A DNA stretch of 42,995 nt from the IMG/VR virus record IMGVR_UViG_3300029705_000072; one strand, 5' to 3'. Position numbers and translations under genes: made by a program. This DNA is from a virus (lineage: Duplodnaviria > Heunggongvirae > Uroviricota > Caudoviricetes). The notes below the pieces were generated by a model that was given only the letters and a program-made list of their open reading frames with translations, made no database searches and had not been told where the DNA came from. Below, piece by piece: positions 3,795-40,742 of the stretch (positions are counted from its first letter, which is position 1; each line of letters opens with the position of its first letter).

Positions 3795-4550
3795 CTATAA
3801 GGTTATATAATCGATTTCTGATAACGACACTGAATCCCAGGATGATAGTGATAGGTATCCGCCAGACCCCTGGTCTACTTCGGATAGTCTTCTGTATCTA
3901 ACCATGGATTCTATTGCGCTTGTATTCAGAGTGAGTGTGTTATTGCCAGCACCGGTAGTTTTGGATGTCGCCGTATTAACGCTACTGTCGAGCTTAATGA
4001 TTACAGACTCTGATAAGCTCTTTGTAGACATCCCACCTATAGTTGATGCATTCAACTCCAGTACGGCGTGTACTGGCTGGTAGACCGTCTTGCTGGCTTC
4101 TACCGATGACTGAATGACCGAAATGGTGTTGGTGCACGCTGCGTACAACGTTCTCAACGCTGACACCGTGCTTTCAAGCAGTTCGGACTCAGATGGTGCG
4201 AGCTGTGTATATTTGACCAACGAAACAGTTTCGATAACAGCGTCTAAACTTATGTCGTTAATCAAGTTCTTTACAGAAACAAGTTCGCTTACGGTACCAA
4301 GCGTGGTCGTTATTTCGAATGAGGTGTTTTCTGGCTGAATATATTTCCGAAGTGCAGCCAGGGCTTGGCTTGCATTCAGGAATATCGTCATCGATCCGGA
4401 GATGTCGGTTCGTCTTGTCAGGTATCTGATAATCAAATCGATTTCCTCAATCTTCTTATCGATAACAACCAGTAGCTCTTTAGTTTTATATCCAACTTGA
4501 ATGGAGTACTTGTGGTTGTTTTTACCTACAGTGACATCGTACTTCTGCAA
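3795..4550 (-). CDS. Hypothetical structural protein (Ser/Thr-rich)
   Basis: 251-aa ORF, TTG start with GGAGGTG, tail operon. Confidence 0.65.
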   Translation of the reverse strand: MQKYDVTVGKNNHKYSIQVGYKTKELLVVIDKKIEEIDLIIRYLTRRTDISGSMTIFLNASQALAALRKYIQPENTSFEITTTLGTVSELVSVKNLINDISLDAVIETVSLVKYTQLAPSESELLESTVSALRTLYAACTNTISVIQSSVEASKTVYQPVHAVLELNASTIGGMSTKSLSESVIIKLDSSVNTATSKTTGAGNNTLTLNTSAIESMVRYRRLSEVDQGSGGYLSLSSWDSVSLSEIDYITL

Positions 4551-22408: not shown

Positions 22409-22556
22409 TTAAGCCAGTTCGTAGCGGCCAACACCGGAGTTGCCGCCTGCCAGTACGATACCGCAACCAAATTTTTCTGCGTAGAAATATTCCTGAGTCA
22501 GATCGCCATTGGTCAGAGGATCGCCCATGATTACCAGGGGATCGCCTTCGTAAACT
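22409..22556 (-). CDS. Major capsid protein, exon 2
   Basis: Not in ORF track. A-GTT-TAC-GAA... gives VYEGDPLVIMGDPLTNGDLTQEYFYAEKFGCGIVLAGGNSGVGRYELA*; same codon bias as exon 1; 866+148 nt = 338 codons. Confidence 0.9.
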
Positions 22557-22942
22557 CTGTTTTGTTTGCTATAGAGTCGCTAACTCTTGCGGGTCATGCC
22601 CCTCCATCTTTCGATAGAGCACAGACTATATCTTCACCCTCACGGGTGTCCACCACTTCGGACGCCAAACGCTTGCGTCCTACTCCCTCGAAGGGATAGT
22701 CGTTGAACCTTCCTCTGTTAGAGGCTTGGCTGCTGATTGCCCATTGTGAACCAGTGCTTAGGGTTTAACCTTACACCATCCCACTATTTCTTTCTGCTTT
22801 CGCAACCATCGCGTATAGTCCTGCTAGGACTTGCGCTGTGGTATAGTAGGCTTTAGGGTTTTCCAGCAATTCGATGGATATTTTTTCGAACACCTTTCGG
22901 TGAACGAAGGCTATTTACGCCGCGCACATGCGCAGGGATTTA
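22557..22942 (-). ncRNA. Group I intron (386 nt, no ORF) in major capsid gene
   Basis: P AAUUGCUGGAAA (22860-71), Q AAUCAGCAG (22730-38), R GUUCAACGACUA (22697-708), S AAGAUAUAGUCU (22623-34); P3 UCCAUC/GGUGGA; P1 AAGGU|UA with UAGCCUU (U.G at splice site); terminal G 22557. Confidence 0.93.
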
Positions 22943-23808
22943 ACCTTAATGGGCTTGTCATCACCGGCAATTACGGTCAGGACTTCGTCGTCCATAACGA
23001 ATTCGGTGGAGCCCAGCTTGTGTCTCTGGGGAGTCATTACTACAGGGGTGCCGAAGAACTTGCCAACATAACCCATGTTGTACATGTCGTTCATAGCAGC
23101 ATCGCTCTGTACAGAGGGCATCAGAGCTCTCAGAGCCTTCTTGGTACCCAGAATGGTTGCAGTCTTGCCGCCTGCAGCAGCTTCAACATGAGAAACCAGA
23201 TCCAGCAGGGCTTCTTCGTCATAAGCACCAGCGGTGGGGAAGAAGGTTACGCCGCCCAGCTGTTCAGCGGTAGCGCCGTTCCATACTGCATGGATTTCAT
23301 CCAGCAGGGACTTGCGGAAGGATTCAGCAACCTTGTTGATCATTTCGTTGAAGTCTACACGACCAGACAGAACTCTGTTCAGTTCTTCGTAGATCTTTAC
23401 AACCTTCAGCTTTGTGGGGATGGAAACTTCGGTGGAACCACCCAGACGCTGTCTGCGGATACCCTGAGTACCATCAGCTGCTTCAGCAACGAAGAACAGA
23501 GTGCTGTCTTCTACTCTGAAAACATTCTGATCGCCTTCAGCAACGTTTCTGAAGTCTACCAGAGACATGAAGAATTCGTCGCCCTGCAGACCTTCGATTA
23601 CGGTGCGGCTCAGAACTTCTTCGATCAGAGCGAACAGACCCTGGCACTTGCCGTCACGGATGTCCTTGTAGTTCAGCTTGGTGCTGCCGCCGTTCAGTTC
23701 GACCAGTGCCTGACGCAGGGTTTCGGTGGTTTCGCTCTTGGAGTATTTTTCTACTCTGCCGTGATAGTTATCTACGGCGAGTCTTACGATGTCTTTCATA
23801 TCAGCCAT
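22943..23808 (-). CDS. Major capsid protein, exon 1 (SPbeta YonB-like, HK97 fold)
   Basis: Strongest codon bias in window; follows protease and decoration genes; spliced junction KPIKV-VYEGD; 337-aa product. Confidence 0.9.
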
Positions 23809-30646: not shown

Positions 30647-31000
30647 CTAGATCACCGCATCTTCTTCGTCATCGATGATTCCTGCAACTTCTGCGTCGTA
30701 TTTATTCAGATCGCCTTCAAACATCTTTACTTCTCTCTTCATCTGAGTGAAGGGGTAGAAGCGGGGGACATAGTGGGGTGGAATCTGAATAGGCTCACCG
30801 GTAATGGGGTGGGGGCAGCTTCTTGCAGCCCTTTCGACGATTTCAAAACTACCGAAGCCGGAGAGATGTACGGCGTTTCCTTTGCGCAGATTCTCCAGAA
30901 TAATGGTTGTGAAGTCATCAATCAGTTCAATGGCACTTTTCTTGGTGTACCCAAAGCGTTCGCGCATCTGATCAACTAAAATGTCTTTTGTAACTTTCAT
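30647..31000 (-). CDS. hup: HU family DNA-binding protein (YonN-like)
   Basis: V.LSGFGSFEIVERAAR..HPITGE.IQIP...PRF.P; extra acidic tail. Confidence 0.9.
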   Translation of the reverse strand: MKVTKDILVDQMRERFGYTKKSAIELIDDFTTIILENLRKGNAVHLSGFGSFEIVERAARSCPHPITGEPIQIPPHYVPRFYPFTQMKREVKMFEGDLNKYDAEVAGIIDDEEDAVI

Positions 31001-31023: not shown

Positions 31024-32052
31024 CTATAGGTCTGATAGACCTTTCTTTTCCGGAGTACTAATGTCTCCGTCCTTAAAATACATGCTGATTTGCTCGTCAG
31101 CGTCGATATCTGTATACACCTTGACCATATCAACGCTATCCCAGGCTACTATCTGTGCGATTACGCTATCTGGGATTCCTGCGCGAACAAGGTTTGATGT
31201 ATAAAAATGTCTGAGACTGTGTGCGTAAAAGTCTCTGCCTGTCATTCGGCTAAAGGTCTCTGCCCAACTATTGAAGGTGGAGATAGGAACTTGCTCAGAA
31301 GGGGAGTCCTTCTTAAAGAACAACCACTCGCTTTCAATACCTAGTTCTTTTCGTTGTTCCATCCATCTATCAAAATAAGGCTTAAATCTTTTGGCAAGCG
31401 TATAGCACGGCACGAACTTACCGCCACCGCGCCCCTTTGTCTGAATGGGATCGCTCTTATACAAAGCTCCGTCGCACACAAGCTTATCTTCACCAAAGTC
31501 AGACACTCTGAATCTGGATAGTTCAGATTTTCTTCTGCCGCTATACATAGCAAGTGCTACGTAGCACGCCTTCTCATGCTCACCACGTTCGGCAAGTTTG
31601 TTCAGAAGTTCGTTTAGCTCGTCTTCCTCCCAAACGGTCTTTTCTCTTACAGCGCGTAGCGCAGGATTCTCTATCTTTCTTACGATAGATCTGAACCCCT
31701 CGAACTCTGGTTCGGAATCCAGAATATTTTCGATGTAGTTAGAGAGGCTTGATATTGCAGACTTAATGCGTCTGATTCTGGCCGGTGAGTTTTCGTTTTC
31801 GTTCACGAGCCATGTTTGGAAAGAAACGAGATCTCTTTTGGTTACCTTCGCAAAATCCTTGTTGCCTAACTTTTAGAGGCAGAAAACAAAGAAAATATCA
31901 AGGTCATTAGAGTAGCCGACAATTGTTCCTTGGCTACGCTGAAGTGATTTTAAGTAGTCAAGAAAGTCGTTTTTCAGCCGTACATTCTCCGGGTTGATTT
32001 GTGCAATAAGCTCCGGAGATGTCAGTGTGTTCATCTTAGTTTTTCTTGGCAC
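31024..32052 (-). pseudogene. Tyrosine recombinase (342 codons) with in-frame TAA at codon 60 (31873-31875)
   Basis: SD GAAAGGA + GTG 32052; same frame continues past TAA (FCL*KLGNK); catalytic GRRKSE, HSLRH, VKVY intact; real mutation vs sequence error unresolved. Confidence 0.75.
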
Positions 32053-32073: not shown

Positions 32074-32148
32074 TGGTGAGGATAGCGGGGATCGAACCCG
32101 CGCCGCCGCCGTGAAAGAGCGGTGTCTTAGCCACTTGACTATATCCTC
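32074..32148 (-). tRNA. trnE: tRNA-Glu (UUC), 75 nt, CCA encoded
   Basis: Acceptor GAGGATA/TATCCTC; D GTC/GAC; anticodon arm CCGCT-CTTTCAC-GGCGG; T arm GCGGG-TTCGATC-CCCGC. Confidence 0.95.
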
Positions 32149-35425: not shown

Positions 35426-36443
35426 CCTTAATACCACATGTCACCATGTGGAGTAGACTATCTCATAACGTCACTATGTGACGTCCTGGGCGCTTCCCGC
35501 CCTGGAATCTCACCAGGACAGTACCCGGTTCATCGGCGTGCCATTCGGTTTAGCCTGTATCCGGTAGTCGTTACACCTTACCACTAGTTTCCCAGCGGTC
35601 TTGGCACGGTATTGTCTGTATTATGTCTATTCAAAACGAAATCTGTATCCAAGATACATTGTGTTGTTTTTAGCGGCTCTTGAAATATGAGCAGATACAT
35701 TATATGGGTGCCTAGACATAGTTGCCCCAGAAGAAATAAGGTGCTCTGCACACTCTTTTATGTACCCGAAACTTATTTCGGTACCGTCGCTAGTTATCAT
35801 TGTAACTGGAGTAGATCGTCCGTTCTTGATTCCTGGCCTTGATTGCTTCTGAATGGACAGTTCGCGGTTCTCTGCGTACTTTTTATGTAGAACGCTATTG
35901 CCGTAATTTGGATTATTCTTGCCAGCCATCGGCCTTGTTTGTGTTACATGTCTTTGATGTGACATTGTATGGTGGATATTTTCAATGCGCGTTGTCCACT
36001 CTAGATTACTCGGCGTATTGTTTAGTCTATTGAAATCTATGTGATTGACTTCTGCGCCGCAAAAATATCCGTCGAGGTAAGTAAGCGCAACGAGCCTATG
36101 AACAAAAAATTCCTTGCGATGGCCATTTTTTGAAAGGCGAACTTTTGCATATCCGTCGTCATTGATTACTTGCTTAATAATACGACCTTTTCTTACGGCA
36201 CTCTGTCCGTCCGATCTTGTTACGAGTCGATCAACGCCAGATACTACTCCAGTGTCGCTTATCTGATACCACCCCTCGTATCCGGGTATATCTTTCCAGA
36301 CCATACCAACACCTCCTTTCTATAATAGTTGAATAGATTGTTGTTTACAGATTTTTACCGTTAGCGGCCTCGCGGCCACACCCTGCATGTGCAAGTTCAC
36401 CCAGTTTTCACTACGCCATCACTGGCGTAGGCGACAAATGTTT
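35426..36443 (-). mobile_element. Group I intron (1018 nt) with homing endonuclease, in RNAP active-site codons
   Basis: P1 CGAU|AA with UUGUCG; P3 CUGGGUG/CGCCCAG; P4 ACGGU/ACCGU flanking the ORF; P7 GACUA/UAGUC; P9 CCACAUG-GUGA-CAUGUGG; terminal G 35426. Confidence 0.92.
35627..36304 (-). CDS. Intron-encoded NUMOD4-HNH homing endonuclease
   Basis: WKDIPGYEGWYQIS (NUMOD4); VHRLVA...VNHIDFNRLNN..NLEWTT..EN (HNH); NUMOD1-like C-terminus; SD AAGGAGGTG. Confidence 0.92.
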   Translation of the reverse strand: MVWKDIPGYEGWYQISDTGVVSGVDRLVTRSDGQSAVRKGRIIKQVINDDGYAKVRLSKNGHRKEFFVHRLVALTYLDGYFCGAEVNHIDFNRLNNTPSNLEWTTRIENIHHTMSHQRHVTQTRPMAGKNNPNYGNSVLHKKYAENRELSIQKQSRPGIKNGRSTPVTMITSDGTEISFGYIKECAEHLISSGATMSRHPYNVSAHISRAAKNNTMYLGYRFRFE

Positions 36444-39914: not shown

Positions 39915-40742
39915 TTACTGCGCTACAACTGCTTCAGCCTCATATAAATTACTATCTAACAAGTAGTTACAAGTTGTACTACCAAGATTCAGTTTACGGT
40001 ACGCTTCATCAATTTCTTCACTGGTGATACCAATATAGTCAAGGGTTTGACCGGAAGATGAATGACCAAATATCTTTTGCAGCAACAGAAGCTTTCGAGG
40101 ATCGTTACCACTCATTACCATCTGGTGATAACCGAAGGTTTTACGAAGAGTATGAGTAGATACTTTAGCACCGATACCTAACTCTTCGGCAATGCCTTTC
40201 AAGATACGATCGATAGAGTTACGATGAATCGGTTCGTTACCGGTGGCGTTAACACTTTCGGAACGGAACAGGTAATCATCAAGTCTCACACCAGGAGTAT
40301 TCTCCAGGTAAAGAGTAACTGCTTCGACTACAGCATTATTTATAGTAATGTAACGATTACGCTTTGTCTTTCTGGTGTTACTTGTTTTTTTCTCCAAAAT
40401 GGGGAAGGACTGCCGAAAGGCAAAATGTTCATTGATCAGCTGGGAGAAGCGAAGTGTTCTAAGGTCACTTACACGAAGACCGAAGTTGATTCCTACAATG
40501 AACAGCATATTGTCACGGTATCTCTTGTTGTCGATCAGGTATTTGGAGATGCGTAAAATATCTTCCATACTCTTGATCGGTTCAGCTTTGTGCTCAGTTA
40601 CTACATCGATATGAACTTCCGAAGCAGCAGGAGCTATGATACCGGATCTCAGTTTTCTGTTGTTTTCTTTTAGACTGGAGATGTCGATGGCGCCAGAAGC
40701 GGCTGTACGATTACTGAAGTCTACACGAATGACGTTTGTCAT
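39915..40742 (-). CDS. Tyrosine recombinase (catalytic-domain type)
   Basis: GINFGLRVSDL, EKKT, HTLRKTFGYH, FGHSS...TLDYIG; SD GGAGGTG. Confidence 0.92.
   Translation of the reverse strand: MTNVIRVDFSNRTAASGAIDISSLKENNRKLRSGIIAPAASEVHIDVVTEHKAEPIKSMEDILRISKYLIDNKRYRDNMLFIVGINFGLRVSDLRTLRFSQLINEHFAFRQSFPILEKKTSNTRKTKRNRYITINNAVVEAVTLYLENTPGVRLDDYLFRSESVNATGNEPIHRNSIDRILKGIAEELGIGAKVSTHTLRKTFGYHQMVMSGNDPRKLLLLQKIFGHSSSGQTLDYIGITSEEIDEAYRKLNLGSTTCNYLLDSNLYEAEAVVAQ

Follow-up and report, generated by a model that had tools for sequence, protein, structure and literature searches.

An ORF-less group I intron in codon 289 of a YonB-family major capsid gene of a tailed phage

The interrupted capsid gene and its product

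The major capsid gene in a 42,995-nt stretch of a Caudoviricetes genome (IMG/VR record IMGVR_UViG_3300029705_000072, hereafter the window) raises a simple question: how can a full-length capsid protein be made from a reading frame that closes after 297 codons? The gene occupies positions 22409-23808 and its coding strand is the minus strand. A previous reading made from the sequence only proposed that the gene is split by a self-splicing group I intron, and that its removal joins 866 and 148 nt into a frame of 337 aa. Both the frame and its collinearity with 104 full-length homologues agree with this proposal. Exon 1 (22943-23808, minus strand, 866 nt) carries codons 1-288 and two bases of codon 289, the intron (22557-22942, minus strand, 386 nt) lacks an ORF and ends in G at 22557, and exon 2 (22409-22556, minus strand, 148 nt including the stop codon) encodes residues 290-337, the two exons contributing 2+1 bases to the Val289 codon. 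The unspliced frame has 297 aa, as had also been claimed, and is closed by an in-frame TAA (22915-22917, minus strand) at intron position +26, which lies in the P1 loop and overlaps the P10 guide.

The sequence-only reading had singled out the continuation of intronless homologues past the junction as the comparison on which it would stand or fall. All 104 homologues run through the exon junction ungapped. They all have K288, V290, E292 and G293, and residue 289 is V in 64 and C in 36. Their mean identity to the spliced protein is 72% in exon 2 and 75% in exon 1. Exon 1 is 73-78% identical to intronless homologues, and our searches found no intronless allele more than 78% identical to the window gene. 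An open frame would also result from joining many other U/G pairs in the gene; hence, an open frame alone is no proof and the boundaries are fixed by homology. Alternative splice pairs were rejected because only the pair 866/1252 is collinear with the homologues and has P1, P10 and P9.0. A frameshift or an assembly error was rejected as well, since independent assemblies share the insert and the insert scores as a ribozyme: two other assemblies of the same phage differ from the window intron by 0 and 1 bases, the single difference being in P6a. We also discarded hidden core-less mini-introns in exon 1, which is collinear with the homologues (288 aa over 864 nt). We consider it confirmed at the sequence level, by the Rfam match, homologue collinearity and P1/P10/P9.0, that a 386-nt group I intron with these boundaries splits the capsid gene, and we infer that it is spliced out.

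The identity of the product is in line with the claim that this is the major capsid gene. The gene order is terminase, portal, YonD-like protease/scaffold, a 165-aa protein and then the capsid gene. The closest known capsids are the YonB-family (PF27364) proteins of large siphophages, SPbeta-like and Tsamsa-like. In Bacillus phage Izhevsk, the protein annotated as major capsid is about 35% identical and the genes follow the same order (terminase-portal-protease/scaffold-small protein-capsid). The YonB assignment comes from precomputed Pfam hits; a local Pfam copy and NCBIfam gave no match for the protein, and sequence searches of PDB chains returned no solved relative. For the structure, we modeled the intronless P0012, a homologue with 77% identity to exon 1, in place of the spliced window protein; a first fold with 20 close sequences was discarded (pLDDT 52), and the retained model has a pLDDT of 74.6. 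All its top Foldseek and VIA matches are HK97-fold shells, encapsulins and phage capsids, and its alignment with HK97 (1ohg; Z 9.6, rmsd 4.7, 230 residues aligned) runs to residue 337.

Residues 287-336 form four predicted strands in this model, which align to the C-termini of solved HK97-fold capsids. A product truncated at 297 aa would thus lack core strands carried by exon 2 and would probably be useless; from the model, we expect it to be unable to assemble. The 57-kb record, at about 48% completeness, contains no second capsid gene. As previously claimed, full-length capsid protein would then depend on ribozyme splicing, given where the unspliced frame ends. It had also been anticipated that annotation pipelines would truncate the protein, and this is what gene callers did: each of the 19 contigs with exactly this protein has the 297-aa call, and exon 2 is either missed or given as a 39-aa ORF. 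The same seems to have happened in 15 of the 120 nearest protein clusters, which are truncated at two positions. Capsid-based phylogenies of the clade would therefore be distorted.

The ribozyme core

Searching the Rfam group I model, a check that the earlier reading had proposed, gave a match to RF00028 on the minus strand (22952-22602; 88.1 bits, E 2.7e-21, model positions 1-253), well above the cut-off of 50 bits. The canonical elements that had been recognized in the sequence are in place, including P1 with a U.G pair at the splice site, P10 and the terminal G. In P1 (22907-22947), the end of exon 1 together with intron bases 1 and 2 (22947-22941) forms 7 bp with the guide sequence (22913-22907), and the U.G pair marks the 5' splice site. 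The P10 guide strand (22913-22919) forms 7 bp with exon 2 bases 22555-22549. P2 was also mapped, beside the helices from P3 to P9. The P3 pseudoknot helix (22649-22878) pairs 22878-22873 with 22654-22649. The P4-P5-P6 domain (22708-22869) comprises P4 (22869-22863/22736-22730), P5 with a large branched extension (22858-22740) and P6/P6a (22729-22708). P7, with the guanosine-binding G-C pair (22624-22701; strands 22701-22697/22628-22624), encloses P7.1 (22696-22684), P7.2 (22680-22660) and P8 (22648-22635). The 3' part (22557-22623) contains P9.0 (22623-22621/22560-22558), P9 (22619-22602) and a tail hairpin (22586-22574). P9.0, which the earlier reading had not listed, has 3 bp next to the terminal G and is identical in the four tabulated complete introns at this site. 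All these elements lie on the minus strand.

The intron region folds better than 100 of 100 shuffled sequences (z -3.6). In a small alignment of 11 related introns (69-79% pairwise core identity), scored on a structure taken from the window copy, the share of paired cells is 91% and both bases have changed in 34 of the 76 pairs; slid controls give 34-42% paired cells and 6-13 doubly changed pairs. Both core domains, P3-P7-P8-P9 and P4-P5-P6, are present and the helices covary: in P3, all cells are paired and two of its six pairs change on both sides, while P4 and P7 are invariant across the 11 introns and match the family exactly in the window. Of the features examined with subgroup IA (IA2/IA3) in mind, P7.1 and P7.2, between P7 and P3, are present and covary, but the intron also has a large P5 extension. 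Since MAFFT had shifted P1 by one column (64% paired), this helix was tabulated by script instead. This revealed a compensatory change in two introns at the same site (in loci L148 and L210), where exon base -2 is U for G and its partner in the guide is A for C. The introns at a second site carry their own guides, which match their exon. A guide that tracks its exon is the pattern expected, on these sequences, if selection keeps splicing working.

In group I splicing, guanosine attacks at the U.G site and the exons are then ligated. Here, the P1-loop TAA would halt a ribosome translating exon 1, a free guanosine docked in P7 would cut after the U of the U.G pair, P9.0 and P10 would align the terminal G and exon 2, and the joined exons would give an mRNA for the 337-aa capsid protein. 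An in-frame stop just inside the intron is described as usual in group I introns and as keeping ribosomes off the folded core (PMC3073962; PMC3984707). Within the window intron, 10 nt (22773-22764, minus strand) are an exact copy of the sequence around the 5' splice site (22948-22939); they lie in a hairpin that is conserved throughout the intron family. This copy is probably a coincidence, and it could be a cryptic site.

Homing, decay or regulation

The introns are rare among related loci. The gene is uninterrupted in 79 of the 80 viral loci (the remaining one is cut off), in 74 of the 80 metagenomic ones (2 have introns, the rest are cut off or frameshifted) and in 34 of the 40 genomic ones (4 have introns). 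Carriers therefore make up about 3% of the complete loci. We inspected the DNA of six truncated clusters besides that of the window and found an intron each time, several contigs ending inside it. The insertions occupy three sites. Site A, in codon 289, has ORF-less introns in the window and in L148 (429 nt), and HNH-bearing ones in L085 (1076 nt), L175 (1082 nt) and L210. Site B, in codon 312, has HNH-bearing introns in L090, L165, L203 and L211, and an ORF-less one in L202. Site C, near codon 248, was found in L211, whose capsid gene holds two related introns (L211:3231-3575 and 3920-4253), ORF-less in the codon 248 region and with HNH at codon 312. The intronless L167 is 96.7% identical to L165 over exon 1 and displays the site-B junction directly, and there are capsid pairs with 98-100% identity over exon 1 of which only one member has an intron. 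A tree built from 196 capsid proteins requires 8 changes to account for the 9 carriers at site A and 9 changes for the 9 carriers at site B, the same as with shuffled labels (6 of the 18 carriers were called from truncated C-termini rather than from DNA). Most intronless viral alleles (L001-L080) have a Cys codon at 289, and all site-A carriers have Val or Phe. A Cys codon places G rather than U before the insertion point, which would prevent the U.G pair from forming, and from sequence it is possibly a natural immunity to the intron.

Related introns also occur in neighboring loci, in the portal gene (four sites), a YomX-like gene, a 149-aa head gene and the tail tube gene. In one locus (L077, 585-8447), head genes spanning 8 kb contain four group I introns, of which two are in the portal; another (L175, 3881-4523) has two tandem introns in the YomX-like gene on top of its capsid intron. 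In a third (L088:444-563) the gene of the terminase large subunit seems split or frameshifted, with no Rfam intron match. Within the window, we observed a second probable group I intron (36443-35426, minus strand, 1018 nt, within 38069-34322), whose RF00028 score of 25.4 bits is below the cut-off. It holds an HNH/NUMOD4 ORF (35627-36304) and splits a 909-aa gene within a D-x-D-G-D motif, the two halves matching consecutive parts of phrog_8308; one relative of the product is annotated as an RNA polymerase. We take the product to be, probably, a YonO-like RNA polymerase, and the split motif to be the catalytic one.

In the relatives, the HNH gene follows both P9 and a small conserved hairpin on their 3' side. 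FastTree places the three site-A endonucleases on a branch of their own (support 0.99), separate from that of the four site-B ones, and family match and co-distribution suggest that the site-A HNH is a site-specific homing endonuclease. The window intron has neither an endonuclease ORF nor a coding remnant, its tail after P7 being only 67 nt; the 57-kb record contains no homologue of the site-A endonuclease, and the window's own HNH is of another family with no similarity to it. The most plausible view of the window copy is that it is an ORF-less intron from a homing family whose members also occupy two other capsid sites and portal, head and tail genes. We infer that its endonuclease was most likely lost, original absence being the alternative. 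Taken together, the data on sequence, structure, covariation, boundaries and distribution lead us to favor, with a probability of about 0.87, a splicing-competent group I ribozyme in codon 289 that is a selfish mobile intron; it would have spread by endonuclease-driven homing, and we propose that its ORF-less copy persists because it removes itself efficiently by splicing.

How such a copy could still move is a separate matter, and one answer is compatible with a selfish intron: it may home in trans, using an endonuclease from elsewhere in the genome or from a co-infecting phage. ORF-less introns of T4-like phages do so (PMC3984707) and site-A endonucleases occur in related phages, but the record, about half of the genome, contains no such homologue and the window's own HNH is of another family, which makes this rather unlikely here. 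The absence of an endonuclease from the window copy could also be taken as a sign of decay, with an intron that splices poorly and a phage that is defective or uses the 297-aa product. Yet all core helices are intact, with P4 and P7 exactly as in the family, exon 2 is conserved like exon 1 in an open frame, its predicted strands align to the C-termini of solved capsids, no second capsid gene is available in the record, and the two other assemblies are identical or one base apart; we regard decay as the least probable of the readings considered.

The sequence-only reading had gone further and suggested that splicing gates capsid output through GTP and Mg, i.e. that the intron is a domesticated regulator, kept since low GTP, Mg or translation slows its splicing and throttles the capsid. 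Every group I intron needs a guanosine cofactor and Mg, which gives the idea its chemical basis, and the 19 truncated calls on 19 contigs and the lack of a closer intronless allele count in its favor. Splicing of T4 introns depends on growth state, according to the passage of PMC10914365 that cites Sandegren and Sjoberg 2007, which also speaks for a gate. Yet the intron is missing from about 97% of the related loci, genes that are nearly identical occur both with and without one, the carriers are scattered on the tree and include HNH versions at the same site, and related introns lie at at least three capsid sites and in many other late genes, as homing predicts. Among described aptamers, no riboswitch was found, only the intron and a tRNA reaching Rfam cut-offs in the window. 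The capsid intron of mycobacteriophage LittleE was, moreover, judged a very efficient splicer (PMC3706429). A gate predicts either clade-wide retention or a sensor element, and neither is seen; the proposal is thus unsupported and, in our view, very unlikely. That the introns of the capsid and RNA-polymerase-like genes together act as a selected checkpoint, cutting late transcription and capsid output at low host GTP or translation and turning the ORF-less capsid intron into a retained regulator, strikes us as very improbable too, if anything more so. A passive effect of growth state on splicing, as cited for T4, is possible by analogy and would not be special to this intron.

Relation to known introns and other features of the window

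The sequence-only reading had placed phage group I introns mostly in DNA-metabolism genes, but introns in capsid genes are already published (PMC3706429, PMC7886860). Pope et al. (2013) reported one in the major capsid gene of the Cluster J mycobacteriophage LittleE, with splicing demonstrated by RT-PCR and N-terminal sequencing, and described a tail gene of BAKA that is split by an ORF-less intron; they also cite a capsid-gene intron in the lactococcal phage Tuc2009 (PMC3706429). As in LittleE, the window intron lies in the major capsid gene, exon 1 ends in U and the intron ends in G. The LittleE intron, however, has 820 bp and an endonuclease ORF, is "most likely" group I and comes from a phage of a mycobacterial host, whereas the window intron has 386 nt, no ORF, a full core that scores in Rfam and a YonB-family host gene; the two are set apart by description. 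Group I introns are typical of the major capsid genes of Delta-group crAss-like phages (Yutin et al. 2021, PMC7886860). The Delta and Zeta groups resemble our case: these gut phages have group I introns in core genes, the capsid gene among them, and their annotation is broken as a result. They differ in belonging to another phage group and in having introns found via endonuclease domains, up to 14 per genome, against two in the 57 kb of the present record. In Jug gut phages, 37 of 76 predicted introns are supported by metatranscriptomes (PMC12880540).

The closest introns of cultured phages are those of the Staphylococcus Silviavirus phages Remus and Romulus, of the Enterocloster phages CB457 and CB473 and of Alicyclobacillus phage KKP_3916, which align to at most 69% of the intron at 70-75% identity; in the collection searched, no intron of a cultured phage matches at least 80% of it. 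The introns of Firmicutes phages and those of the T4 td/nrdB/nrdD type share with it the helices between P7 and P3 and the stop codon just inside, and differ in lying in other host genes and in mostly having an endonuclease (with a GIY-YIG-type annotation in CB457P1). Among the relatives of the Izhevsk capsid, none of the 120 nearest proteins is truncated, and the introns were seen only in a clade mostly binned with metagenome-assembled genomes (MAGs) of gut Clostridia. The reference case of a regulated element is the group I intron of Clostridioides difficile that is controlled by a c-di-GMP riboswitch (PMC3984707); the window intron differs from it by the lack of any riboswitch found and by a distribution that is patchy rather than fixed.

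Our literature searches found no YonB-type capsid gene with this intron family, and searches for YonB gave nothing. The site in YonB-type capsid genes is thus probably unreported, while elements of this kind, and in this kind of place, are already published, and the main value of the observation lies in the annotation and in the map of homing sites. The clade offers a natural series (empty site, HNH intron, ORF-less intron), with three capsid sites and site-specific endonucleases, that suits the study of the homing cycle in virion genes. KKP_3916 provides a culturable test case for the intron family: this cultured phage has an unannotated group I intron (L179:5944-6262, 70 bits), placed by gene order in the tail tube gene and followed by a 208-aa ORF. 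A scan for promoters and terminators gave results at chance level. Finally, on its minus strand, the window carries the tRNA mentioned above (32077-32148), two tyrosine-recombinase genes (31024-31806 and 39915-40742) and a gene for an HU-like protein (30647-31000).
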